A stretch of 43,679 nt of DNA from a virus (lineage: Duplodnaviria; Caudoviricetes): positions 1 to 43,679 of IMG/VR virus record IMGVR_UViG_3300032277_000011; one strand, given 5' to 3'. The stretch's first letter is position 1; the number at the start of each line of letters is the position of its first letter. Of the stretch, positions 3,619 to 42,850 are shown in pieces. The notes under the pieces were generated by a model that ran no database searches, was not told the origin of the DNA, and was given only the letters and a program-made list of their open reading frames with translations. The position numbers and the translations under genes are program-made.

Positions 3619-4644
3619 TTAATGTGTCATGTTCCAGTCTAAACCTATATCAGTACTCCCAGCTAAAGGACAGTACATACCTAGGTCTTCTCCTACTCTC
3701 TCAAGTGATAGTCTCTGTAGTCTACCTACCTCCTCAGCTTCAGCCATAGTACCACGTACCTCAGTCTGCCACTCATCATGAACTAGATCAACTAACTTGT
3801 AGTCTATACCTGTAGCATCTACCCACTCCTTCCATAAGACTGTAGCCTTCTTCATTACAATACTCTCACCTGACTGTAGGTAACCAGCTAACATAAGGTG
3901 CTCACTATCACACATAACCTTACGTCCATCCAACCCAATGAAGAAACCTTTACGTGCATCCTTAGGTATCATTAAAGACTTAACCTTATTCAACTCAGGT
4001 AACGAAGTGAGGAAGTTGTCTACTGCTGTACTAGCTTGAGGTATACTACACCCAAGTATCTCAGCTACCTTAGTCACTGATGCACCAAGTAGCCAAGCAT
4101 AGATGAAGGTCTTAGCGTCATCCCTATCCTTACATATAGAGCCTAAGGCTTTCCTATTCAAGTTGTGGATGTCAGTCTCTAGTGCCTTATCACCATTGAC
4201 AATAGCTTCAACGTACTCATCTGACTCCATGATGTGAGCAAGAACTCTTAGCTGTATACCCTCAGCATCAGTACCTACTAGGTAGCACCCATCATCCACA
4301 GTCCACAAGGCTCTCATCTCAGCATCATACCTAGCCTTGATCTCCTCTACTGCTGTCTCAGGTACGCCGTGAAACGGTGAAGGGATGTTAGCTTGGTTAG
4401 GTTTACTGTGTGACATCCTCCCTGTCCATGCCCCTATGTGCCAGAACTTACCGTGAATACGACAATCATTAGGGTCCACTACCCCTAGCCACTCAGCTAA
4501 TGATGAACGTCTACCCTCTAGTGTAAGCCACTGAGCTAGGTCCTTAGCTGCCTTAGGTGCTGTGTTAGGTAAGGTGTTAAGATTCTCCTCTGATACAGAC
4601 CAACCATAGCGTTTAAACCTTTCTTCCTTCTCTTTGTCATCCAT
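3619..4644 (-). CDS. family A DNA polymerase, C-terminal polymerase part (split gene)
   Basis: TGRMSHSKPNQANIP, motif A DAEGIQLR, motif B RDDAKTFIYAWLLG, motif C VHDE. Confidence 0.95.
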   Translation of the reverse strand: MDDKEKEERFKRYGWSVSEENLNTLPNTAPKAAKDLAQWLTLEGRRSSLAEWLGVVDPNDCRIHGKFWHIGAWTGRMSHSKPNQANIPSPFHGVPETAVEEIKARYDAEMRALWTVDDGCYLVGTDAEGIQLRVLAHIMESDEYVEAIVNGDKALETDIHNLNRKALGSICKDRDDAKTFIYAWLLGASVTKVAEILGCSIPQASTAVDNFLTSLPELNKVKSLMIPKDARKGFFIGLDGRKVMCDSEHLMLAGYLQSGESIVMKKATVLWKEWVDATGIDYKLVDLVHDEWQTEVRGTMAEAEEVGRLQRLSLERVGEDLGMYCPLAGSTDIGLDWNMTH

Positions 4645-4728
4645 TCTTCACCCTTTCTAAGTAGTCTATTGCTTTCTGAAGTCCTCTCACAGAGTCGCCT
4701 AGCTTTCCTCTTCTGTTTTCTCTGTCAC
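4637..4728 (-). pseudogene. remnant of an endonuclease VII-like homing endonuclease
   Basis: The start-less frame 4708-4637 reads GKLGDSVRGLQKAIDYLERVKNG*, resembling the EndoVII-family C-terminal helix (LGD....L.+AI.YL). A GTG start at 4728 (MTEKTEEES*) is in another frame. Confidence 0.55.
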
Positions 4729-4910
4729 TATAACATCTCCTTAGGTACTTTTACTTCTACCTCAGTGTACTTGAAAGGGTACCTAAGGTCGGTGTCAACA
4801 AGAGCTTCATTAATCTCGTAATAGCCGAATGTCCTGCTTACCCAGTCTGTCTTACAGTAGAAGCAGTACCCACCTGACTCATAAGCAACTAAATCACCTT
4901 CTCTAGTCAT
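4728..4910 (-). CDS. EML-tail family microprotein
   Basis: 60 aa, starts MTREGDLV, ends VPKEML*. Confidence 0.75.
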   Translation of the reverse strand: MTREGDLVAYESGGYCFYCKTDWVSRTFGYYEINEALVDTDLRYPFKYTEVEVKVPKEML

Positions 4911-5778
4911 AACTCTTCCTCCGTTGTTCCATTAGAAACTTCTTATGCCCTTTAGTTTTAGCTGTTGGTTTCCACTTAGCATCCCACAGTACATCTATCC
5001 TTTGCTTAGGTGACGCAGGGTTGAACTCCTTGTACTCGAAGATAGTTAACTCAGTACCATCATCACTTACCTCAACCTTAGGTGACTCAGCTATAGCTCT
5101 AAGTACATTAGGGTAGAGCTTACCATCCTTTCTCTTCCTCATTAAGATAGTTCTATTAGGTACTAACTGAGGAGGGAAGGCAACATCAAACCCATCCTTG
5201 AGTACCTTCATGTCTACCTCTACTGAATCTAACATAGCCTGAGCTTCATCAACCTTGAACTTAAACCCAGCTTGTTGCATCTCATGTGATATGGTAGCCA
5301 TGTCGTGCTCTAACCTCATTGAGTCAGCCCATGTCTTATCTATGATGTAAGGTTTAAGGTACTCCCATATAGCTTCCAGTACTACTACATCCTGTTGACA
5401 GTACTCAACCATCTCCTTAGTCATTACATCCCAGCCACCAGTGTAGTCTCCCTTGTGCACCTTAAGGTACTTACCTATCTCATCTAGGGAGTGACCATTA
5501 AACTTACTGTAGTCAACTAACTTGCTTACTACCATAGTATCAACACAATCCTTAGGGTCTATAGCTTGATACCCTAGTAGTTCATTGATCTTAGGTACGT
5601 CAAAGCCTAGTCCGTTGTGGAATATCCACTTGTCTACATCCAAGTTGTCCTTCATCATAGCCTCAGGGTTGTAGTAGGTTGTAGTCTTACCTGTATCTAA
5701 TCTCTTAACTACACCAACATGAAAGGTCTTAGCTTCAGGTAGTGCAGTCGTTTCTATGTCAGCTAAAGCTATCCTCAT
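4903..5778 (-). CDS. family A DNA polymerase, N-terminal 3'-5' exonuclease part (split gene)
   Basis: ExoI DIET, ExoII HNGLGFD, ExoIII YCQQD; continues into the thumb (FNPASPKQ). Confidence 0.93.
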   Translation of the reverse strand: MRIALADIETTALPEAKTFHVGVVKRLDTGKTTTYYNPEAMMKDNLDVDKWIFHNGLGFDVPKINELLGYQAIDPKDCVDTMVVSKLVDYSKFNGHSLDEIGKYLKVHKGDYTGGWDVMTKEMVEYCQQDVVVLEAIWEYLKPYIIDKTWADSMRLEHDMATISHEMQQAGFKFKVDEAQAMLDSVEVDMKVLKDGFDVAFPPQLVPNRTILMRKRKDGKLYPNVLRAIAESPKVEVSDDGTELTIFEYKEFNPASPKQRIDVLWDAKWKPTAKTKGHKKFLMEQRRKSYD

Positions 5779-5779
5779 A

Positions 5780-5986
5780 TCAGAGCATCTCCTTAGGTGC
5801 AGCTAAGTAACAATCCTTTAGGTCCATCCACGACCCATCCCCAACTGTACTTAGAGCCTTTGCCCAGTCCTTAAACCATTCGCCGTACAGTGACGTACCC
5901 TTCTTTTTGAACACCACACAGTACACAAGTCCAGAACCCAAACCATGGTCACTCTCATCGTAGTAAACTAAATCACCTTCTCTCAT
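5780..5986 (-). CDS. EML-tail family microprotein
   Basis: 68 aa, starts MREGDLV, contains WFKDWAKAL, ends APKEML*. Confidence 0.75.
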   Translation of the reverse strand: MREGDLVYYDESDHGLGSGLVYCVVFKKKGTSLYGEWFKDWAKALSTVGDGSWMDLKDCYLAAPKEML

Positions 5987-6303
5987 TATAGCATCTCCTC
6001 TCCGTCACTTCGTTCCTTGGTACCTATATGTACTTCAATCAGGTCCTCAACAACCTCATGTATACCTGCCCCACCGTTGTACCAGTAGCACATGAATCTT
6101 ACTTCATCTGAGGGTGTTATGACTAGGGAAAATCCGTGTGGTTCCACCTCTTCAAGAGCATAGAAGGAGTAGAGCTGACCCTTTACTTTGACGTAGTGAC
6201 ACCCGTGTTCTTCCTCTAGGTCATAGAAATCGTCATCATCCTTCGGGTCAATGTCTAGGTCTGACTTCTTGAAGACACCATAAAATAATTCCATACCACT
6301 CAT
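5986..6303 (-). CDS. hypothetical phage protein (WYNGGAG motif) ending in EEML
   Basis: AAGGAG RBS; 105 aa acidic protein; ends GEEML*. Confidence 0.75.
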   Translation of the reverse strand: MSGMELFYGVFKKSDLDIDPKDDDDFYDLEEEHGCHYVKVKGQLYSFYALEEVEPHGFSLVITPSDEVRFMCYWYNGGAGIHEVVEDLIEVHIGTKERSDGEEML

Positions 6304-6320
6304 ACTTACTTCTCCTTTGT

Positions 6321-7877
6321 TTAGGTAAATTCTTCTAGTGTAAATGATTCAGGATCAAACTTAACTTGTCCTGCATACCCAGTCAAACTTGCTGGTCTAT
6401 TCTTCTTGATAGTCAAGGTAGTAATGTTAGCTACATCAGGGTCCTTGTTGTCCATGTCCCTAGTCAACTGTACTACAACACTAGCTTGCTTAGGTATCAT
6501 ACGACAGTCCCTTACTAACCCATCATCATTCTCGTGGGCAATGACAACGATCCCACAACCTGTCTCACTGGCTACCCTAGCTAACTGTACTGACATCTTA
6601 GTTAAGAACTGCTCAGTTGTACCATCACTAGGGCTACGTTGGTGTGCTATGTCCTGTATAGGCTCAAAGAATACGTATTTACATTCACATATGTTAGTGT
6701 AGTACTTAATCCTTTCAACTAGAACCATAGGGTCTTCATCAGTACCTATACTAAACAGGTGAACATTCTCACTACCAGTCAAGGTCTTAATACTATCCTC
6801 AACATTATCTGAGGGGTCTACTAACTGCTTACGTGTAAGGTTCTTACCTTTATCATACGACACTAGACCAAGGAGTGACCTCTGTTTACTCTCCTCTAGG
6901 TGACACATAGCGAAGGGTGTATCAGGGTAGTTCTTAATCATGTGATGCTCGAAGTACCTGAATAACTCTGTCTTACCTGTACCCTCAGGTGCTTGGAATA
7001 CTGTGAGTACCCCTTGCACTAAACCTAATGCTTTCTGATCGAACTCCTCTATACCAGTAGTGATGTACTCAGCATCTTGACCTTCATTGAATATCTCTAG
7101 GTACCCATCTACTGTACTGGTGTCGTACTCAGGTACATACTTCTTCTTGTTGATCCAAGCAAAGAGGAAGTCCTTGTCATCACCAGCCTCAAGGAACTCA
7201 TTAGGGTCCTTGTACTTAGTCATCTGCACTCTGTATACCTTACTACTAGGGAAGGCACTAGCTATCTTATCAGCTGCCTTATCACCTGCTTGGTCGTTGT
7301 CAGTGCATACAGCTATACTCTCGAAGGACTTGATGTACTCCTCACAGTTCATGAGTAGAGACTTAGAGATACCAGCACTAGGTAGTCCAACCACTGGCCA
7401 CTTCTTGCCTAACATCTGGTATACTGAGAGTACATCTAACTCACCCTCACAGATAGTCAGGACCTTACTACTGCCAGCATTAAACTTATCCATACCGAAG
7501 AGGTGATCACTAGTGAATCCCTTATTCTTACTGAAGTCCTTAGGTAGGTACCTATACTTCTCCTTGTGTGGGTAAGGGTAAACATGTCTTACGTCCTCAC
7601 CTGAGGTATCCATGCTTACTGTTACCCCGTATGCTTCACATACATCCTTGTTGATTGACCTAATCTTCTTGGTTATCTCATTAAGTTCAGGTCCAGTGTA
7701 CTCTGTCATAAATTCTACCTCCTTAGAATAGCTTGAACGTATCATAGGTTTACTCTCACCGCATGAATGGCAGTACGTATTAGTTTCCCAAGTGACTAGG
7801 CAACCCTTATGTCCACAGTCAGGACAGGTTCCATGTGTGTCTAGGGGTTCAGTGTCTTCCTTCATCATCATCGTCAC
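6321..7877 (-). CDS. T7 gp4-like DNA primase-helicase
   Basis: Zn finger CPDC...CHSC, TOPRIM CEGELD and DNDQAG, Walker A APEGTGKT, KKNRP. Confidence 0.93.
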   Translation of the reverse strand: MTMMMKEDTEPLDTHGTCPDCGHKGCLVTWETNTYCHSCGESKPMIRSSYSKEVEFMTEYTGPELNEITKKIRSINKDVCEAYGVTVSMDTSGEDVRHVYPYPHKEKYRYLPKDFSKNKGFTSDHLFGMDKFNAGSSKVLTICEGELDVLSVYQMLGKKWPVVGLPSAGISKSLLMNCEEYIKSFESIAVCTDNDQAGDKAADKIASAFPSSKVYRVQMTKYKDPNEFLEAGDDKDFLFAWINKKKYVPEYDTSTVDGYLEIFNEGQDAEYITTGIEEFDQKALGLVQGVLTVFQAPEGTGKTELFRYFEHHMIKNYPDTPFAMCHLEESKQRSLLGLVSYDKGKNLTRKQLVDPSDNVEDSIKTLTGSENVHLFSIGTDEDPMVLVERIKYYTNICECKYVFFEPIQDIAHQRSPSDGTTEQFLTKMSVQLARVASETGCGIVVIAHENDDGLVRDCRMIPKQASVVVQLTRDMDNKDPDVANITTLTIKKNRPASLTGYAGQVKFDPESFTLEEFT

Positions 7878-8080
7878 TATAACATCTCCTCTGGCACTAC
7901 TAGGACATCATTACTAGATATACGAGAGCCGCCAAATAGGTTTCCCTCGTAACTATCAAGACACCTTGAGTACAGTTTAGACTCAAACCCTTCACCACCT
8001 ATTGACCTCATCCAGATTTTACCTTGCACAATAGTAGGTGAACCTTCAAACTTGTATAGTCCGTTAGGTTTCAGCATCAT
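7877..8080 (-). CDS. EML-tail family microprotein
   Basis: Starts MMLKPNGLY, ends VVPEEML*; the stop overlaps the primase GTG. Confidence 0.75.
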   Translation of the reverse strand: MMLKPNGLYKFEGSPTIVQGKIWMRSIGGEGFESKLYSRCLDSYEGNLFGGSRISSNDVLVVPEEML

Positions 8081-8270
8081 CCTTGCCCCCTTCAATCTCC
8101 ATGCTATAAGTTATTGTATCATCATCTAAGAGTTCAGTCAACTCCTTCCACCCAAAGGTTTCCCCTTTAGCCCTACTGATCCAGTAGTTACATTGACTAC
8201 AGTAGTACTCATCTGATGTAGCCTTGTAGTGTGGTGCATTAGAGTTATCGCATATAATACAGTTGGTCAT
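8064..8270 (-). CDS. small zinc-finger protein
   Basis: CIIC...CSQC; AAGGAG before ATG 8270. Confidence 0.65.
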   Translation of the reverse strand: MTNCIICDNSNAPHYKATSDEYYCSQCNYWISRAKGETFGWKELTELLDDDTITYSMEIEGGKDDAET

Positions 8271-8297
8271 GTTACTCCTTTCTGTGTTGTACCTTAA

Positions 8298-8323
8298 GTT
8301 AGTTTGGAGCGAAGCTCTCACTA
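8298..8323 (-). other. conserved short hairpin element, copy 1
   Basis: Minus strand TAG-TGAGAGC-TTC-GCTCC-AAACTAAC directly at the CobT-like stop. Confidence 0.6.
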
Positions 8324-10090
8324 TAACCTCAACTTCCCATCTGTTAGGACATTAGATAGTTCACCCATAACCTTAGAGGAGAACTCTTCCATGTCATTGA
8401 TTACTACACTCTTAGGATATAGGTTCTCAACATGGTCAGTGTGTACACCAATACCTATGCACTCCACATCCTTGATACCCTCGACGTACTCCCTCAAGTG
8501 TCTCTCTAGCTCACCATAACCTACACTTTCTGAAGTGGTGTTAGCTGGTTGTCCATCAGATATAGCTAAGAGTATCTTCCTCTTCTCAGGACGTGAACGT
8601 AGGCGTTGGTGTGCCCACATAACAGCATCCCTATCTGAGTTACCACCTCCTACATACCCATCAATCTTACCTACTGTATCCCTCTTGTTGAACAGTTTAT
8701 CAGTAAAAGATTTGAATACAAATGTCCTTAAGATGTCAACTCTATGATAGTTCTGGTCTGCATACTTCTCGTAGTCGTTATTGAACTCAGTCTGGTAGTT
8801 CCCGTTACTGAAGCCAGTGATCTCATACTTAATCTGTGTACCCTCAAAGCATTCAGCTAAGGCAATAGCCATCTGTGTAGCAGCGTAGGCCCTCTTATCA
8901 TACATTGAACCAGATAGATCAATCAGTACCTCAATGGCTGTGTCCATCTCATCCCTATCTTTACGTGCCTTGTAGATGTTCTGTGCCCCATTGTACCCTG
9001 ACACCAGACGTTTAGTATCTAGTCTGCCTAGTTCTCTACCGTAGTCCCAGTCCCTATTCTCTCTAGCTAGTAGTGACCTACGTAGTTTACTCTTCATTAC
9101 ATTGATGTGAGATTGTACCTTAGACTTCTTCTCTTCGTAACCATCCTTGCAGTGCCGGCCAGTGAACCTCTTAAGTAGCTCCTCTCCCTCATAGGTTACA
9201 TCATCTCTAGTTGAGAGTACACGATAGGCTCCCTTGTAGTCTCCTTCCTTGATTACCCTGTCACCTAGCATCTCGGAGATCATCTCACCTTCATCTTGAG
9301 GTGGACCATCAGGTTGTTCTCCTTCTAGTGGGTGTCCTTGACCCTCACCTTTACCACCCTCCTGAGGTTGGCCCCCACCTTCTTGTTCTTCACCCTCCTC
9401 ATCACTAGGTTCACCCTCAGTGTAGTCCTCAGGATCAAAGTCCTCAGGGTCTTGCTCTAGTTCAGGGTCCTCCTCTAAGTACTTGTATACTGCACGAGTA
9501 AGGTTAACTACATCACCAGTGTTCTCACACTTATGTACTTCCTCTATCCACCTCTCAGCGTGGCCCTTAAGGTTGCTAGGTAGAACATCTAGTACCTTGG
9601 AGTTCATCTCAGTACGTTCATAGTCCTTCCTACCTGTAGCTGTGATAGCTAGACCCACTGAGGGTAGGTTAACCTTACTGAATACCTCAGGGTTCTCCTT
9701 AACGAAGTCCAACTCCTTCTCTTTGATGAACTCATTGACACTAGATAAGTTCTTACCTGAGCCTTGGTACTCCTCCATTACCTTCTTCTCTAACCACATA
9801 TCCTCTAAGCAGTTATGAAGCATAGACATAGACTCATTACCTTCACGTCCTAGCTTGTTGACCTCATCGAAGTCAGTATGTCGTAGGTGTCCAGCCTCAT
9901 GGTCAACGTAACCCCTCATGATCTTAACTTCATCTTCAGTTAAGGTTACACCTTGAGGTAGACTAGGTAGTATGACTTCCTTCCCGTTAGTCTTAGCCTC
10001 ATCACCCTCGAAGTGTACTTGCACCTCACTGTTTCTACCTAAGACAGCTGATAGTTGCCTCATCTCATGTGTGAACTCTTCGGTCTTCAT
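8321..10090 (-). CDS. CobT-like vWA (MIDAS) protein with N-terminal HExxH domain
   Basis: GYVDHEAGH, NCLED, acidic linker, GRLD, MIDAS DLSGS, ISDGQP, CIGIGV. Confidence 0.88.
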   Translation of the reverse strand: MKTEEFTHEMRQLSAVLGRNSEVQVHFEGDEAKTNGKEVILPSLPQGVTLTEDEVKIMRGYVDHEAGHLRHTDFDEVNKLGREGNESMSMLHNCLEDMWLEKKVMEEYQGSGKNLSSVNEFIKEKELDFVKENPEVFSKVNLPSVGLAITATGRKDYERTEMNSKVLDVLPSNLKGHAERWIEEVHKCENTGDVVNLTRAVYKYLEEDPELEQDPEDFDPEDYTEGEPSDEEGEEQEGGGQPQEGGKGEGQGHPLEGEQPDGPPQDEGEMISEMLGDRVIKEGDYKGAYRVLSTRDDVTYEGEELLKRFTGRHCKDGYEEKKSKVQSHINVMKSKLRRSLLARENRDWDYGRELGRLDTKRLVSGYNGAQNIYKARKDRDEMDTAIEVLIDLSGSMYDKRAYAATQMAIALAECFEGTQIKYEITGFSNGNYQTEFNNDYEKYADQNYHRVDILRTFVFKSFTDKLFNKRDTVGKIDGYVGGGNSDRDAVMWAHQRLRSRPEKRKILLAISDGQPANTTSESVGYGELERHLREYVEGIKDVECIGIGVHTDHVENLYPKSVVINDMEEFSSKVMGELSNVLTDGKLRL

Positions 10091-10150
10091 AGTGTATCTC
10101 CTTTCTTTATTGTAGCTTGTAGCCCGACAGTGCGTTAGGAACGAAGTGAC

Positions 10151-10363
10151 TCATAGCATCTCTAGTGGGACAATCAACTCTACCTCATACCCGTAGTTTT
10201 CTAAGAACTCCTTAAAGGTCTGTGAGTCTGGTTCAATTTCAGAGTCATTTAAGGACTTAACCCAATCTTCCCAAACATTATATAGCCTATCACTTTGCTT
10301 GATGTACCAAGGCATGTGTTCTTTATCAGCCTCTTCAAAGTACAGTCCATTAGGATACTCCAT
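10151..10363 (-). CDS. EML-tail family microprotein
   Basis: Starts MEYPNGLY, contains WEDWVKSL, ends IVPLEML*. Confidence 0.75.
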   Translation of the reverse strand: MEYPNGLYFEEADKEHMPWYIKQSDRLYNVWEDWVKSLNDSEIEPDSQTFKEFLENYGYEVELIVPLEML

Positions 10364-10386
10364 ACTTCTTTCCTTTCATACTTCAT

Positions 10387-10413
10387 GTTAGTTTGAAGCC
10401 TTGGCTCTCACTA
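10387..10413 (-). other. conserved short hairpin element, copy 2
   Basis: Minus strand TAG-TGAGAGC-CAAG-GCTTC-AAACTAAC directly at the CobS-like stop. Confidence 0.6.
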
Positions 10414-12069
10414 CTTAGCCACTCTATCTACTAACCCTCGTAGTACAGCGTAGTCCTGTAGGTTAGCACGATCTAGTACTGTCATCTCCAAGGCATCCTT
10501 AACTGGTGACTGAGAGTTAACTGAGTTGAAGTAAGCTACTGCTTTACCTACAGCTAACATACCACGAGGTGAGATAGGTTGGATTACCTTAGCTTCTTTG
10601 AATGCCTCAAGGTGTTCAGTAGTATACTTACCTACCTGTTGTACATCCTTCTCAGTTAAGGTAGGGCATGTGTCCTTGAGTAATGCTTCACGTTGTTCAG
10701 GTTCAAGGTAATCAATCTTAGCCCATACAGTGAAGCGATCAAGCAAGGCTAGTGATTGAGGACGAGCACCTTGATACATACCCTTCTCATCTCCTTGTCC
10801 TACTGTGTTACCAGTAGCAAACATACGGAACATCTCATGTGGTTTAACTACACGATCACCATCCTCAGTAATACGTAAGCCGTTACCCTCGAAGGCACCC
10901 TGCATAACATACGACACATCAGGACGAACAAAGTCTAGCTCATCGAAGCACCCTAAGTATGGGCCTGACATCATACGGGGTAGGATACCATCAATGAACT
11001 CACTGACTGTGTTACCTTCATCATCTGTAGTCAAGGTATCACGACCAATCAAATCCATACGAGTGATCTCACTATCAAAGTTAACTCTAGCGAAGGGCCA
11101 GTTAAGGTGTGCTGCCACCTGCTCAATCAAGGTAGTCTTACCTGTACCAGTGTCCCCTTGTAGGTAACACCGTTGGTTAGTTACGATAGAGTAGATGACA
11201 CGTAGTAGTTCCTTCTTACGGAAGATGTACTTGCTGTCAATGTTAGGCACATCAGGGTGTACAGCTACACTACCATCATCAGGGTTAGTCCACTCCCAGC
11301 ACGGTACCTTCTGATCTTCTTCCTTAGTAATCTTAAGGGAAGGGAACAACTTACTTAAGGACTTCATTACTACCTTACCCTCAGGTACAGTACCGTCAGA
11401 CTCAACAGCTACATCCTTGAAGGGCTTAGCTTTAAGTTCAGCATCCATTGAAGACAGTTGCTTCTTGAACTCCTTCTCCTTAGCTTTCATTGAGGCCAAG
11501 GTATCCTTAAGTTTGTCATCAGATGTAGCTGACTTGAGTTGTGCTTCAAGGACTAGATCACTTGAGGTATTAACCTTGTTGATTAACTCTTCAATACTAG
11601 GCAGCTTAGAGTTCTCTAGGACTACATCCAATACCTTACGTTCACTAGCTGAAGGTACAACTAGAGGTGTGTCTGAGGTATCAGTTACTGTGGTCTCTAC
11701 CTTAGCACTTGAACCTACCAAACCTTGGGCATGTACCTCAGCCAGTGCCTTCTCAGCTGCTTGGTAACGATCAGGGAACTCCTCTAGGTAAGGGTACTTA
11801 CTAACACTCCCTTGGTTCTCGATTACTAACCAACTCAGTACAGTGTAGTCATCCTCATAGATAGCAATCAATAAGGTACCCATAGGCATAGCCTTGAGTG
11901 TGTTATATAAGGTCTTACCTGAGACACCTTCGACATCATTGGTTACATCAGACTGGTTGTCATACATCCAGCGTTTAACTAGGTGTAGTATCTTTTCTTT
12001 GTTGATGTTCTCTTCACCACGTACCGCTGGGTTGTAGTGTCGAGCGAATTGATTTAATAGTTCTTTCAT
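10411..12069 (-). CDS. CobS-like MoxR-family AAA+ ATPase with long N-terminal extension
   Basis: Walker A GDTGTGKT, RVNFDSEITRMDLIG, Walker B FDELD, FATGN, LLDRF, ISPRG. Confidence 0.9.
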   Translation of the reverse strand: MKELLNQFARHYNPAVRGEENINKEKILHLVKRWMYDNQSDVTNDVEGVSGKTLYNTLKAMPMGTLLIAIYEDDYTVLSWLVIENQGSVSKYPYLEEFPDRYQAAEKALAEVHAQGLVGSSAKVETTVTDTSDTPLVVPSASERKVLDVVLENSKLPSIEELINKVNTSSDLVLEAQLKSATSDDKLKDTLASMKAKEKEFKKQLSSMDAELKAKPFKDVAVESDGTVPEGKVVMKSLSKLFPSLKITKEEDQKVPCWEWTNPDDGSVAVHPDVPNIDSKYIFRKKELLRVIYSIVTNQRCYLQGDTGTGKTTLIEQVAAHLNWPFARVNFDSEITRMDLIGRDTLTTDDEGNTVSEFIDGILPRMMSGPYLGCFDELDFVRPDVSYVMQGAFEGNGLRITEDGDRVVKPHEMFRMFATGNTVGQGDEKGMYQGARPQSLALLDRFTVWAKIDYLEPEQREALLKDTCPTLTEKDVQQVGKYTTEHLEAFKEAKVIQPISPRGMLAVGKAVAYFNSVNSQSPVKDALEMTVLDRANLQDYAVLRGLVDRVAK

Positions 12070-12296
12070 TTGTCTTCTCCTTCTTGATCTACCATACTCA
12101 TACCATCAGTCATCCTAACGATATCCTCTAGGGTCTCAGGGTTAGTACCTAGCTCATACCCTACAGCCATACCCTCACTGAAGGCTTGAGATAAGAGCTT
12201 ATCCATGATCTGCTTACCTATACTGTTACCTACCAAGAACCCTACAACAAATCCTCCTGTTACTAGGGCTACATGAATCCAATTGATACTATCCAT
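12066..12296 (-). CDS. small membrane-anchored protein
   Basis: N-terminal hydrophobic helix; AAGGAG RBS. Confidence 0.65.
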   Translation of the reverse strand: MDSINWIHVALVTGGFVVGFLVGNSIGKQIMDKLLSQAFSEGMAVGYELGTNPETLEDIVRMTDGMSMVDQEGEDK

Positions 12297-12330
12297 CTTA
12301 CTTCTCCTTCTCTCTCTTCTCTAAGTTATC

Positions 12331-12558
12331 TTATAACATCTCTAGTGGTACAAGTAAATAAGGTTTATAGGTCAAGCCCACTAATTCTTCAGGTGTTGCT
12401 TGGATACCTACCTTATCCTGCTCATCTATAGCTTCCAGCCAAGAACCTCTCCAACCACTTCTAGACCCTCCAGAGTATACTGTATAAGGTTCTGTGTCTC
12501 CCCTTGTACTCTTATTAGCAAACCACAACCCCTTTACTTCATAGTCAGTCTTCTCCAT
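12331..12558 (-). CDS. EML-tail family microprotein
   Basis: Contains KGLWF and WRGSWLEAI, ends YLLVPLEML*. Confidence 0.75.
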   Translation of the reverse strand: MEKTDYEVKGLWFANKSTRGDTEPYTVYSGGSRSGWRGSWLEAIDEQDKVGIQATPEELVGLTYKPYLLVPLEML

Positions 12559-12704
12559 CCTCCTCTAACCTCCTGTTATCATTGGTCATTCCATTGGTGT
12601 ATACATTATCACATGGGTCATCGCTATGTTCATCGGGAAGAACGTAGTCCTCAGGTGGGTCATCTCCACTCTCACTAGCGACCTCTTTGTTTTCATTAGA
12701 CATA

Positions 12705-12881
12705 TTATAACATCTCCTCTGGTACTAGTAGGGTATAATGTTCTTCTCCTAGGCTACCTCCTAAATCAACACCACTGAACGTACAGATTAAGGCGTTCAT
12801 CCAGTTACGTTCATACCCCGACCACCCTTCAGGCCAACACCTAAGGTAGTCTCCTTCACTATCTCTAATCAGACCGTACAT
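12705..12881 (-). CDS. EML-tail family microprotein
   Basis: AAGGAGG RBS; MYGLI...WSGYERNWMNAL...YTLLVPEEML*. Confidence 0.75.
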   Translation of the reverse strand: MYGLIRDSEGDYLRCWPEGWSGYERNWMNALICTFSGVDLGGSLGEEHYTLLVPEEML

Positions 12882-13317
12882 GATCATAACCTCCTTGAGG
12901 TGTCGCAGCAAGCTGCTCAGGGTTCCCCTCTACTACAATAGTGAAGTACCTATCTTGAGCAGGGTCATAAGAGTAGTCCTCAAAGACTCTAGGTACAAAG
13001 GGTTGAGTGTCAGCCATACAACCAAGGTACTCTACCTCACCATCAGGGTACACTAACTGAGTATACTTCTTGTTGCACTCACTCACTTGCATGATACACT
13101 CTTGCTTATCAAGGTAACCTGAGTCAGCTACAACAAGATGGAAGTCATCAGTCCTCATGATAAAGGAGTACTTTAGCTTCCCCTTATAACTACCAATCAT
13201 AGGCTTCATGGTTCCCTTCATCTTACCTAAAGCTCTCGCCTCATCAACTAACCTCAAGAACCTAGCTAGTGTATGTAGGTCAGTGAAGTTATCTATACTA
13301 AAGATTGTGTACTTCAT
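12865..13317 (-). CDS. putative SAM lyase (T3 SAMase-like) family protein
   Basis: GSYKGxxxxSF, QECI, LVYPDGEVEYLG and DYSYDP pattern; early-region position; recognised by eye only. Confidence 0.5.
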   Translation of the reverse strand: MKYTIFSIDNFTDLHTLARFLRLVDEARALGKMKGTMKPMIGSYKGKLKYSFIMRTDDFHLVVADSGYLDKQECIMQVSECNKKYTQLVYPDGEVEYLGCMADTQPFVPRVFEDYSYDPAQDRYFTIVVEGNPEQLAATPQGGYDHVRSD

Positions 13318-13907: not shown

Positions 13908-14291
13908 ATGTTCTCTCCGTACACCTGTACTTATTGTGGTTCTCCTTCTGACTCTCTTGATCACGTTGTACCACAGTCCTACACTAACTCAACCTCATTC
14001 TCTAAAGACTTGGTGGTCCCTTGTTGTAGAGAGTGTAACACTTTACTAAGCAACACCTTCAACCACACCATATCAGATAGATGTTATTTCCTTATACCTA
14101 AATACCAGAAGAGGTACAAGAGAGAACTTAACATGCCTGACTGGACAGAGCAAGAACTTAATGAAGTCTCCGAAGATATGGCAAACTTTGTGTCATCTTC
14201 TTTATCCTTTCGTGATGAGACTAAACTTAGAGTAGAAAACCTTAAGTTTGTAGCTAATTTAAATCCCTCTATACAGGACGTTTGGAAGTGA
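13908..14291 (+). CDS. HNH endonuclease
   Basis: CTYC...DHVVP...VPCCRECN; opposite orientation to its neighbours. Confidence 0.85.
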   Translation: MFSPYTCTYCGSPSDSLDHVVPQSYTNSTSFSKDLVVPCCRECNTLLSNTFNHTISDRCYFLIPKYQKRYKRELNMPDWTEQELNEVSEDMANFVSSSLSFRDETKLRVENLKFVANLNPSIQDVWK

Positions 14292-15984: not shown

Positions 15985-16013
15985 TTGACAAGTACAGTTC
16001 TTTATGGTATAAT
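15985..16013 (+). promoter_or_regulatory. consensus sigma70 promoter for the packaging/structural arm
   Basis: Perfect TTGACA-N17-TATAAT with TGn extension. Confidence 0.9.
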
Positions 16014-38380: not shown

Positions 38381-38531
38381 GTTAACTAAAGTAGAAGAGA
38401 GACTACGTACCATGGCGAGTGACTTAGCTGGTATACTCTCAGGTATCAACAAACTATTATGGTTAATTGGGGGAGGTTTCCTCTCTATTGGGGTAGCCTT
38501 AACTATACAGTTTATTGTGACACATTCATAA
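38346..38531 (+). CDS. coiled-coil plus TM protein (holin-like)
   Basis: RLTKVEERL followed by a C-terminal TM helix. Confidence 0.6.
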   Translation: MSEEEIHDLDIRLTKVEERLRTMASDLAGILSGINKLLWLIGGGFLSIGVALTIQFIVTHS

Positions 38532-39055
38532 TGGATATGTCTAATAAGACAGGTAAGAGGTGTTGCCACTGTAAGGTGACAAAAGACTTGGACTCGTTCC
38601 ACCGCAATAGACGTATGGTTGATGGTTTAACTAGGGAATGTAAAACCTGTGTTAAAGAGTACAACGCCAGACACTACAAGAGAACACGCAAGACTAGGTT
38701 ACAGTGGCAGAAAGAGTACAGGGAGCGTAACCTAGAGTACCGTAAAGAGTACGATAGGATGCAAAGCAAGAGACACTATCAAGAAAACAAAGAGAAGTAT
38801 TACGAAAAGACAGCCACTAGAAGAGCCTCTAAGCTAGAAAGAACTCCTTCTTGGTTGACTGAAGATCATAAAGAAGATATCCGAGACCTGTACAAATTAG
38901 CTAGGAAACTGGAAAAACTTTGTGGTGCCAAATACCATGTAGACCATATTGTACCACTCCAAGGTAAAGACGTCTCAGGTTTACATGTACCTTGGAACCT
39001 ACAACTACTAGAGGCGTCTATGAATCTGAGTAAGGGTAACAAGTATGGCGATTGA
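38531..39055 (+). CDS. HNH homing endonuclease with N-terminal Zn finger
   Basis: KRCCHC...CKTC, TPSWL, YHVDHIVPL, GLHVPWNLQ, NLSKGN; start 38531 from TAATG coupling. Confidence 0.88.
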   Translation: MDMSNKTGKRCCHCKVTKDLDSFHRNRRMVDGLTRECKTCVKEYNARHYKRTRKTRLQWQKEYRERNLEYRKEYDRMQSKRHYQENKEKYYEKTATRRASKLERTPSWLTEDHKEDIRDLYKLARKLEKLCGAKYHVDHIVPLQGKDVSGLHVPWNLQLLEASMNLSKGNKYGD

Positions 39056-41069: not shown

Positions 41070-42850
41070 TCACATGTCCTCCGTCCAGTTTGTAGGTCCA
41101 CATAACAGGCTGCACCTTCAACCTCATCATGGTTCTCTTCTACCTCTTCTTCCTCTACTACATCCTCAGCTGCACTAGCAGTCAAGATACCGTACCTCTT
41201 ACCAGCCGCCCTGAAGGTAGTACATCCACTAGCACCTCCTTCATAGGCTCTCATGTATACCTCCTTGAATTGCTCCCATGTCACATCATCGCCTACGTTA
41301 CACGTCTTACTACAAGCACTGTCCACATACTTACTTGCTGTAGTCAATACATCCACATGATCAAAGACTGATAGCTCATTGGCTGTAACACCCTTGACAC
41401 CGTACTCTCTGTACCCGTAGTCAGTAACCCGCTCAGTACGAGGACCCTCAAAGGTTTGTATTAGTCTGTCGTATGAGTGAGAGAAGACTGGTTCTATACC
41501 ACTGGAGATGTTATCAGCAGATAGGCTAATAGTACCAGTAGGGGCAATGCTAAGAAGATGTGAGTTACGTATCCCATGTGTCTTAATGTCCTCTCTAATG
41601 TCCTCAGGTAAGCTCATAGCGAACTCACTGTTAAGGTACTCCTCATGGTACAAGGGGAAGGCACCCTTAGTCATAGCCAGTTCAATAGAGGACCTATAGG
41701 CTGTATCTCTAAGGATAGTCATGACCTCAGTAGTGAAGGCAAGGAACCCAGTACTACCATACTTAAACCCTAAGGCTTCACCAGCGTTAGCTAACCCAGT
41801 GATACCTAGGCCCATACGTCTCTTGTCTTTAGCTTCCTTCTCCTGTTGTGGTAGGGGGTAGATAGCACGATCAACTACATTATCCATAGCTCTAACTACT
41901 GGCCCTATGTCTTCCTTTAAGGCTTGATAGTCAAAGAACCTAACAGCTTTATCTGGATACTCCCTTTCAGCTGACCAAGGTTTGTTGCCTTGAGTATACA
42001 CATACTTAGTAAGATTAAAGGACCCAAGCAGACAGGCACCATAAGGTGGCAGTGGTTGTTCTCCACATGGGTTAGTAGCAGCTATCTCCTCACAATAATG
42101 TAGATTATTCTTATCATTCATACGATCAATGAACAAAATTCCTGGTTCTGCCCAGTCCCAAGTACTCCGAAGTATCTCATTCCATAGGGCTGTAGCACTA
42201 ACTGTCTTATATACACGACCCTCAAAGACTAGATCAAAGTCAGTGTCCTCCTTCACTGCCTCCATGAACTCATCTGTCACACCAACACTAAGGTTGAACT
42301 GAGTAAGAGTATCACTGTTGTTCTTTACTCTAATGAACTCCTCAATATCTGGGTGGTCAACTCTAAGTACACCCATCTGAGCACCCCTACGGTGGCCAGC
42401 ACTAGCAACAGTCTTACAGGTAGCGTCGAAGATTTCCATGAAAGATAGAGGACCGCTAGAGCGGCTGTCAAGACTACGTATAAGAGCGCCACGAGGACGT
42501 AGTGTACTAAAGTCATAACCTATTCCTCCTCCTAGTTGCATTGTCTTAGCTGCTTCCTTAGCTGCATCCATAATGCCATCCATACTGTCATCTAGTGTGT
42601 TAGAGACGAAGCAGTTGTATGGTGTGGTCTGTCTAGCTGCACCCATAGAGGACTGTACTCGTCCAGCTGGGAGGAACCTCTGATCTAATAGGATATCTCT
42701 GAAGGTGTTGTAGTGTTCATCAGTATCCTTAAGGGCATCAGCTACCCTAGTCATAGCTTCTTTAAAGGACTCACCCTTACCACGATACTTCATGGCATGT
42801 ATCTCTTTACTGATACCTAGTGTTGGTCCGTATTCCTTAGGTTCACTCAT
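41066..42850 (-). CDS. nrdJ: class II (adenosylcobalamin-dependent) ribonucleotide reductase
   Basis: NCFV, GGGIG, RRGAQM, TNPCGEQ, IAPTGT; no beta subunit in the window. Confidence 0.9.
   Translation of the reverse strand: MSEPKEYGPTLGISKEIHAMKYRGKGESFKEAMTRVADALKDTDEHYNTFRDILLDQRFLPAGRVQSSMGAARQTTPYNCFVSNTLDDSMDGIMDAAKEAAKTMQLGGGIGYDFSTLRPRGALIRSLDSRSSGPLSFMEIFDATCKTVASAGHRRGAQMGVLRVDHPDIEEFIRVKNNSDTLTQFNLSVGVTDEFMEAVKEDTDFDLVFEGRVYKTVSATALWNEILRSTWDWAEPGILFIDRMNDKNNLHYCEEIAATNPCGEQPLPPYGACLLGSFNLTKYVYTQGNKPWSAEREYPDKAVRFFDYQALKEDIGPVVRAMDNVVDRAIYPLPQQEKEAKDKRRMGLGITGLANAGEALGFKYGSTGFLAFTTEVMTILRDTAYRSSIELAMTKGAFPLYHEEYLNSEFAMSLPEDIREDIKTHGIRNSHLLSIAPTGTISLSADNISSGIEPVFSHSYDRLIQTFEGPRTERVTDYGYREYGVKGVTANELSVFDHVDVLTTASKYVDSACSKTCNVGDDVTWEQFKEVYMRAYEGGASGCTTFRAAGKRYGILTASAAEDVVEEEEVEENHDEVEGAACYVDLQTGRRTCE

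Follow-up and report, generated by a model that had tools for sequence, protein, structure and literature searches.

Several small genes scattered through the virus record IMGVR_UViG_3300032277_000011 (Duplodnaviria; Caudoviricetes), a complete 43.7-kb record whose 43,679 nucleotides we refer to as the window, encode proteins that end in the same residues, Glu-Met-Leu (EML). What does such a shared tail do, and for which partner is it kept? We found that EML is one genome's version of a tail carried by a large family of small, variable proteins in marine, cobavirus-like phages, and that this family occurs together with a particular N-terminal domain of a phage-encoded CobS-like ATPase, whose gene is paired with one for a CobT-like von Willebrand factor A (vWA) protein. 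Our favoured reading, which we hold tentatively and with rather less than even confidence, is that the six family members of the window are tag-docked, swappable adaptors on this motor of the phage's own, each likely targeting a host defence protein.

Tails, bodies and distribution of the tagged proteins

The seven minus-strand open reading frames (ORFs) that a sequence-only reading of the window had reported to end in EML-stop are all present where it placed them (Table 1), as are the N-terminal and Trp-rich motifs that it quoted and the variation in Leu (TTA/CTA/CTC), Pro (CCT/CCA) and all three stop codons. EML terminates 7 of the 551 stop-to-stop frames of at least 30 residues, against a composition expectation of about 0.09 (551 x 1.6e-4), the next commonest tripeptide ending 3. 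At the DNA level a degenerate tail pattern, allowed up to 2 mismatches, is found 7 times, compared with 0.23 expected from 100 shuffles, and 6 of these matches are ORF ends. The remaining match (41496-41516, plus strand) lies antisense within a ribonucleotide reductase gene, reads IPLEML without a stop and is probably due to chance. An assembly artefact can be discounted for the tails, since contigs from two other public DNA runs cover 6 of the 7 without a difference from the window, although these runs share year and habitat with the possible source run and might thus belong to one campaign. No cassette swap was seen among the contigs aligned to the region, at low depth and with short pieces.

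Six of the seven ORFs (58-75 residues) share the longer ending hydrophobic-hydrophobic-Pro-x-EML. The seventh, 5986-6303, was rejected as a member: it has no hydrophobic-Pro part, it matches phrog_6035 (E 4e-19), and what it has in common with the members is only GAGGAGATGCTATAA, which is the Shine-Dalgarno (SD) sequence and start of the next gene. Its homologues occur in 11 roseobacter-phage records, and the single one translated ends differently. An expanded family is supported, with six members in the window instead of the seven first proposed. None of the six has a family match in PHROGs (E<=0.05) or Pfam (E<=0.1), four tagged relatives gave nothing or only E>=0.12 in a family profile search, and a homologue search with 5780-5986 returned itself alone.

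The nearest relatives of the window's primase-helicase are found in PQ867845.1 (classed as Zobellviridae/Cobavirinae; 53%) and in roseobacter cobaviruses. In 12 cobavirus-like genomes we curated 134 tagged ORFs (median 67 residues, 126 of them between 55 and 80), chosen by eye from gene maps and with 4 of the 134 anchors visibly misplaced by script. Clade-wide, the tail reads hydrophobic-hydrophobic-Pro-x-x-hydrophobic, with Pro at the anchor in 127/134 ORFs, drawing on all four codons, and Glu at P+2 in 88/134, this Glu being mostly lost in one class, PxxLxxW. Each genome has its own version. PQ867845.1 carries 16 ORFs of 60-74 residues ending in PxEF[LFM]x; other genomes, reached by fetching loci with the ATPase and primase, use PxEF[LF]E (L094, L088), PxEY followed by a hydrophobic and any residue (G006), IPKEY[TCA] (L063) or PxxLxxW plus 0-8 residues (L018, L019, L020). 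Nearest to EML is the PxE[LFI][LIM]-stop of three metagenome loci (L196, L208, L228). Identity over the five positions after Pro averages 0.40 within genomes versus 0.19 between them (21 genomes; 0.84 in the window), and given this genome specificity it is expected that the exact DNA pattern of the window tail had 0 matches in viral contigs. EML itself, or a free EML C-terminus, which the sequence-only reading took to be the conserved unit, is not supported as such: 0/218 tails of other genomes end in EML, and in the PxxLxxW class the stop falls 0-8 residues past the motif. As an observation in its own right, the MazG protein of PQ867845.1 (L010, 18205-18846) ends in MKEFL-stop over the next start, which is that genome's tail minus the Pro and parallels ORF 5986-6303 of the window.

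Each genome of the clade carries about 3 to 18 tagged ORFs, and a scoring profile counts 6-18 per genome in the 7 complete ones. All those of the complete genomes lie in the early/replication arm save one doubtful hit, and no ORF longer than 125 residues ends in the tag. Of 334 tag-like ORFs, 169 are singletons. This tagged, hypervariable gene library fits no family tested, and none of the papers listed by a search of open-licence PMC and bioRxiv describes it in title or available text.

The tail is conserved as protein, judging from its codons. Conservation at codon positions 1/2 is 0.96/0.99 at Pro and 0.85/0.99 at P+3, while position 3 stays at about 0.5-0.65, which bears out clade-wide the selection on the peptide that had been proposed for the window. 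The tail always lies in the same reading frame, and in the PxxLxxW class Trp is fixed at P+6 regardless of the distance to the stop. A second use is layered on top. In the window the Glu codon of EML is GAG in 7/7 tails, and in 5/7 an AGGAG sits within the tail 8-9 nt before a start codon that either shares nucleotides with the stop or comes after it. The DNA of these five thus has a second role as ribosome-binding site; the two PLEML tails have no SD. Throughout the curated set an SD within the P to P+2 codons accompanies a coupled gene in 63/134 tails, 43/134 have no SD-coupled downstream gene, and Glu is written as GAG in 49 of 57 cases with coupling versus 11 of 20 without. For a gene that comes immediately after the tail, the x-Glu codons thus supply, by sequence, the ribosome-binding site as well. 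A 9-codon GTG ORF likewise begins at 4728, behind the SD of the 4728-4910 tail.

In front of the tail the bodies are variable, as had been claimed, and this holds clade-wide. Among 12 genome pairs compared, 11 have ORFs that can be aligned, and in these the ratio of nonsynonymous to synonymous divergence (dN/dS) of the bodies is 0.13-0.50, indicating purifying selection, and body dN is 2.6-38 times core-gene dN, which understates the divergence because only still-alignable ORF pairs enter the calculation. Tail dN is below body dN in 11/11 pairs. Body dS matches or exceeds core dS in 10/11 pairs (24-fold in one), which suggests whole-gene replacement, and one locus next to the ATPase carries a near-constant tail on widely differing bodies. 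Faint similarity beyond the tail is seen on the scale of the clade: G[LIVM][YWF] falls within the first 18 residues of 36/134 ORFs, against 5.1 (maximum 15) in 1000 shuffles, and body-only directed matches at E<1e-3 number 21, against 0-1 in 5 shuffled sets. In the window itself the similarity first claimed there is hardly detectable, the best pair reaching E 0.04 in the 134-sequence set, and a family-wide hidden Markov model, the kind of check first suggested for these ORFs, gives held-out members at most 23 bits.

The CobS-like ATPase, its CobT-like neighbour and the company of the tag

The window ATPase carries an AAA_5 domain with Walker A and B motifs next to a vWA gene, and is by these features of the CobS/MoxR type. 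It differs in that the CobS core is preceded by an extra N-terminal helical domain (approximately residues 1-115, encoded at 11725-12069) and by a long helix (159-214); the AlphaFold2 (AF2) model shows a compact helical N-domain (predicted local distance difference test, pLDDT, 72-94 over residues 1-120), a flexible linker, a 55-residue helix and the CobS core. The model of residues 1-284 had no fold match in PDB at E<=0.001; in BFVD it matched two AAA proteins of uncultured phages, at E 4e-4 and 7e-3 and with TM-scores that were low. A wide fold search, in which the N-domain was barely probed, gave long-helix matches only. All 81 database proteins found by an N-domain profile carry AAA_5, and comparison of the domain with the N-terminal extension found on CRP-810-type ATPases detected no clear relationship (hhalign probability 3.5%).

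The adjacent CobT-like protein consists of an N-terminal HExxH...NxxED zincin-type motif, an acidic linker and a vWA domain with a MIDAS, the metal-ion-dependent adhesion site (DxSxS, invariantly DLSGS). Residues H64, E65, H68, N93, E96, D97, D391, S393 and S395 are invariant in 16/16 CobT-like proteins, the match to cobaltochelatase CobT (PDB 9uka) is strong (E 4.6e-71), and the N-domain weakly matches the peptidase family phrog_459 (E 1e-6); by its motif the HExxH domain would be an active peptidase. The HExxH region (alignment A5, positions 71-138) also has a weak match to AcrIIA26 (PDB 9zq6, E 0.009).

The comparison of genomes places the tag in the company of this pair. A BLASTP gene-content screen of 55 window genes leaves, outside the virion genes, just the ATPase and the vWA protein as matched in 11/11 tagged relatives and at the same time unmatched in CRP-4 and in 7 partial untagged loci. 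Of the four complete relatives without CobS/CobT (CRP-4, CRP-5, CRP-6 and ICBM2), three have no tag-like end and one has a single such end, and 89 loci without the ATPase yield 7 such ends among 1979 small ORFs, at most one per locus. The association is with the N-domain: at least two tags occur in 26 of 33 distinct loci with the N-domain ATPase, as opposed to 0 of 50 loci in which the CobS-like ATPase is full-length but of another kind (9 further loci, with truncated ATPases, being excluded), and outside the training set of the tag profile the figures are 15/22 and 0/50. The notion that CobS/CobT alone suffices for tags was rejected on the same 0/50.

Two cases stand apart. The metagenome locus L210 has the ATPase N-domain and, judged by eye, more degenerate tails (IPVALI, LPKKWIE, IPTKWMM) below the profile threshold, possibly a tag in decay or in the course of switching. 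In L212/L209, whose N-domain diverges most within the LxxW class, tails are few and degenerate.

An adaptor reading and the alternatives to it

AAA+ proteins can receive adaptors through short docking motifs, as SspB docks on the ClpX N-domain and cofactors on the p97 N-domain. By analogy, we propose that the small proteins, plausibly small barrels, would be made alongside the early and replication genes, many through translational coupling via their own tails; that each tail would bind one of the N-domains arrayed round the ATPase ring, as SspB does on ClpX; that each body would bind a different host protein; and that the motor, with its vWA/peptidase subunit, would remodel or cut what is bound. 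Because every tail must then fit one N-domain, the tails would change together within a genome, leaving the bodies free to diversify or be exchanged. The most likely binding site is the N-domain placed by AF2, with the vWA protein as the alternative, and the targets would be host defence proteins. Counter-defence is favoured because of the early-arm location, the fast evolution, the neighbouring lyase gene (Table 1) and the Vcrx089-like ATPase core. Thus the earlier suggestion of adaptors on one common partner has gained a candidate partner in the ATPase/vWA pair, with binding to it as tentative as the reading as a whole. In SspB and the p97 cofactors, too, a C-terminal motif tethers a substrate-binding body to an AAA+ N-domain, although there is no sequence relation, and those are host housekeeping systems with few adaptors whereas the present ones are phage-borne, fast-evolving, up to 18 in number and marked by a genome-specific motif.

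Related motors have been assigned other roles. Phage cobST and MoxR pairs likewise consist of an adjacent CobS-like AAA_5 ATPase and a CobT-like protein with HExxH and vWA-MIDAS parts; in the portions of the literature available to us, an aid to cobalamin synthesis was proposed for phage cobST (PMC8651126), its function was called uncertain (PMC11288001), and the MoxR plus peptidase-vWA pairs of jumbo phages were proposed to serve virion assembly (PMC7824862). The accessible text of these three papers mentions no tagged partners, whereas the window has a clade-specific N-domain and many tagged ORFs. Cobaltochelatase CobS-CobT (PDB 9uka; bioRxiv 10.64898/2026.10.09.757910, as far as its available text goes) shows the same AAA+/vWA design, with homology over most of CobT, but bacterial CobS is a 38-kDa protein with no such N-extension, compared with 552 residues in the window, or about 230 extra N-terminal ones. 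No CobN-sized gene stands among the window ORFs of known function, no search directed at CobN having been made, and a host CobN could be the catalytic partner of the window motor.

On IncC plasmids a gene pair with a demonstrated effect provides a parallel to counter-defence. The window ATPase core is 34% identical (E 1e-29 over 209 residues) to an IncC AAA gene in the Vcrx089 position, taken to be orthologous to Vcrx089 from the gene order: it is followed by a hypothetical gene and then by ssb, bet and exo, as in vcrx089-093. According to the available parts of PMC7498323 and PMC11602122, Vcrx089 is an AAA_5/CbbQ_C ATPase, and deletion of vcrx089-090 renders plasmids restriction-sensitive. 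In Vcrx089-Vcrx090 (IncC hde), too, a mobile element carries a MoxR/CbbQ-type AAA_5 ATPase, there with a demonstrated anti-restriction effect; the plasmid protein differs in having 322 residues, no N-domain and one partner gene.

A number of points weigh against our reading. Function does not carry over from an identity of 34% to the gene in the Vcrx089 position, and within the 10.6 kb covered no CobT-like gene neighbours the IncC hde ATPase. The motor can do without tags, since untagged CobS/CobT pairs (CRP-810 type, ICP2) are common. All tagged genomes form one clade and the co-occurrence is therefore a single event; Fisher p-values are not independent, and tag and N-domain could be two inheritances from one ancestor. 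Of the N-domain loci 7/33 have fewer than two scored tags (4 are shorter than 3.2 kb, and L210 has the variant tails given above). The BLASTP screen misses fast-evolving candidates, the Cys-rich ORF 8064-8321 being an example, and part of the tag may be structural, since an AF2 model (pLDDT 63) places a strand just before the Pro. Covariation, judged from sequence comparison, favours the motor, but its signals are modest and do not decide between N-domain and vWA protein as the partner. Tag distance and N-domain distance correlate best of 12 regions (Spearman 0.81, the others 0.40-0.74; 18 genomes), yet after primase, polymerase and exonuclease are accounted for the N-domain retains a partial r of 0.27, below the 0.33 of the middle region of the vWA protein. 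Similarly, tag class requires 3 changes (the minimum) when mapped on the tree of the N-domain or of either domain of the vWA protein, against 4 on those of the ATPase core, primase, polymerase and exonuclease and 5 on that of single-stranded DNA-binding protein, an advantage of one step, with weak support and differing row sets.

Could the tail instead be the last strand or turn of a shared SH3/Tudor-like barrel, in independent paralogues with no common partner and with tails homogenised by gene-end recombination? A common small beta fold is plausible from the models. The ESM model of 5780-5986 (pLDDT 0.62) is an SH3-like beta-barrel, at TM-scores of 0.65-0.71 to ten small-barrel models (among them clusters named after DUF2158 and DUF4926, and all below the tool's naming bar), while 10151-10363 gave a low-confidence model with no usable fold. 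In a tagged relative, AF2 (pLDDT 63) predicts four strands and, in addition, a short one formed by the two hydrophobic residues before the Pro, and about 10 of the 50 fold matches listed for it are SH3/KOW/Tudor chains, the best at a Z of only 3.5. The tag would presumably be like the beta4-3/10-beta5 segment of SH3. The G[LIVM][YWF] excess and the 21 body-only matches agree with a shared barrel, and the high body dS points to gene swapping. What a fold leaves unexplained is the genome-specific M, F, Y or L-x-x-W at a fixed spacing from Pro on dissimilar bodies; moreover, third codon positions are not homogenised, and small barrels are ubiquitous, yet the tail is absent from the 50 other CobS loci and near-absent from the 89 loci without CobS. 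We consider a purely structural tail unlikely.

Another possibility is that the tail engages the CobS/CobT machine but that the small proteins are its substrates, the tail acting as a degron or as a site where the HExxH domain would process them, with timed removal or the release of peptides as the outcome; or they may be clients when virions are assembled. The co-occurrence data apply here equally, the HExxH/NxxED residues are invariant, and the conserved tag Glu could serve a MIDAS site, as in CbbO and Rea1. A zincin that cuts variable precursors with a conserved C-terminal peptide has a precedent in FxSxx-COOH (available text of PMC7159879), and the virion-assembly proposal for MoxR plus peptidase-vWA pairs (PMC7824862, likewise in part) would accommodate clients. 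On the other hand, Glu at P+2 is lost from a third or so of the tags (present in 88/134, as noted), a general degron should reach ORFs above 125 residues, of which none is tagged, and the virion arm of the 7 complete genomes holds no tagged ORF apart from the doubtful hit, so that we judge substrates or clients to be improbable.

Much the same improbability attaches, in our estimate, to a tail that binds some other partner, be it a host-specific hub (protease, polymerase or clamp), another of the phage's small proteins, or the prohead, for which the tail would be a packaging signal. A host-specific partner explains a genome-specific tail equally well, and the gene-content screen is blind to divergent genes. 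The internal proteins of T4 join a constant capsid-targeting sequence to variable bodies, and by analogy they resemble the present family as small phage proteins with a constant terminal peptide; they differ in motif and phage family, in being clustered and not dispersed, and in having no link to an AAA+ motor. The tail class tracks the ATPase and vWA trees slightly better than the replisome trees (the covariation test covering non-virion genes), and close roseobacter-infecting relatives without CobS/CobT have 0-1 tag-like ends, which speaks against such a partner. Finally, a tail that is only a DNA feature (ribosome-binding site with start/stop overlap, or a cassette recombination site, EML being incidental) would suit the GAG codons, the SD-coupled tails and the core gene order that varies between genomes, but it is largely refuted and very improbable in view of the free wobble positions, the four Pro codons, the use of both TTR and CTN Leu codons, the uncoupled tails, the constant Trp at P+6 whatever the SD or stop distance, and the single reading frame.

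Returning to adaptors on the phage motor, the motor is of a known kind, and the part suggested for the tagged library is a tentative one. A broader claim, which we hold more doubtfully still, is that of a programmable phage remodelling or proteolysis machine made up of a CobS/CobT motor, its own peptidase and 3-18 cassette-swapped micro-adaptors with a genome-specific docking code; if true, it would let a phage disarm many host defence proteins in modular fashion and would explain what at least some phage cobST genes do. Such CobS/CobT-like genes are widespread and usually labelled as vitamin B12 helpers without functional test, and the clade described here supplies candidate partners, a short mutable motif and natural lock-and-key variants. 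If adaptors they are, one motor with many targeting modules would represent a new counter-defence design, like the substrate receptors of ligases, each body would be a bait for defence proteins of marine bacterial hosts, and orthogonal tag/N-domain pairs would be potential engineering parts. Even if the adaptor reading fails, a family undescribed in the sources searched forms much of this clade's small-gene content, with a tail rewritten in concert in each genome.

Features of the window and neighbouring genes

The minus-strand arm that holds the tagged ORFs (Table 1) contains a probable S-adenosylmethionine (SAM) lyase, the CobS-like ATPase, the CobT-like vWA protein, a primase-helicase and a split DNA polymerase. 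The host is possibly a member of the Rhodobacteraceae, since one gene has homologues in roseobacter phages.

Table 1. Tagged proteins, candidate partners and selected neighbours in the window
Feature	Position	Strand	Remarks
Split DNA polymerase (separate exonuclease and polymerase genes)	3619-4644 and 4903-5778	-	
Tagged protein, 60 aa, VKVPKEML end	4728..4910	-	Between exonuclease and polymerase halves; no Pfam/PHROG family
Tagged protein, 68 aa, LAAPKEML end	5780..5986	-	Tail holds SD of exonuclease gene
phrog_6035 protein, 105 aa, GEEML end, not a member	5986..6303	-	End carries SD and start of next gene
Tagged protein, 66 aa (from ATG 8077) or 72 aa (from TTG 8095), LVVPEEML end	7877..8077	-	Tail holds SD of primase-helicase gene
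CobT-like protein, 589 aa	8321..10090	-	PF11775, 105 bits (cut-off 21); candidate partner
Tagged protein, 70 aa, LIVPLEML end	10151..10363	-	Between ATPase and vWA genes; tail without SD
CobS/MoxR-type AAA+ ATPase, 552 aa	10411..12069	-	PF07728, 54 bits (cut-off 22); phrog_249, E 5e-47; best candidate docking partner
Tagged protein, 75 aa, LLVPLEML end	12331..12558	-	Tail without SD
Tagged protein, 58 aa (from ATG 12881), LLVPEEML end	12705..12881	-	Tail holds SD of next ORF
Probable SAM lyase (anti-restriction class), neighbour, not a member	12865..13317	-	PF23780, E 3.3e-6, 27.5 bits (cut-off 28)

BLAST homologues of the SAM lyase were found in 4 of 11 tagged relatives and in one untagged locus. 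The split polymerase was ruled out as a cause of the tags, ICBM2 and CRP-5 sharing it without having tags. Its exonuclease gene relocates among relatives and in PQ867845.1, L094 and L088 is found upstream of the primase. Between the two polymerase halves of the window a 35-codon minus-strand frame (4637-4744), which overlaps the end of ORF 4728, resembles a C-terminal remnant of an endonuclease VII gene (phrog_307, E 0.07). The small Cys-rich ORF at 8064-8321 (minus strand; CxxC...CxxC) has look-alikes that start in MRCxxC near the primase in many tagged genomes but give no BLAST match, and is another possible clade marker. Two genes of the HNH kind lie on the plus strand, an HNH-type endonuclease gene at 13908-14291, opposite in strand to its neighbours, and one that is HNH-like by eye only at 38459-39055. 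In a promoter and terminator scan, sites were rarer than in shuffles and none was linked to the tails. A perfect sigma-70 consensus promoter with an extended -10 element stands at 15985-16013 (plus strand), ahead of the virion arm.

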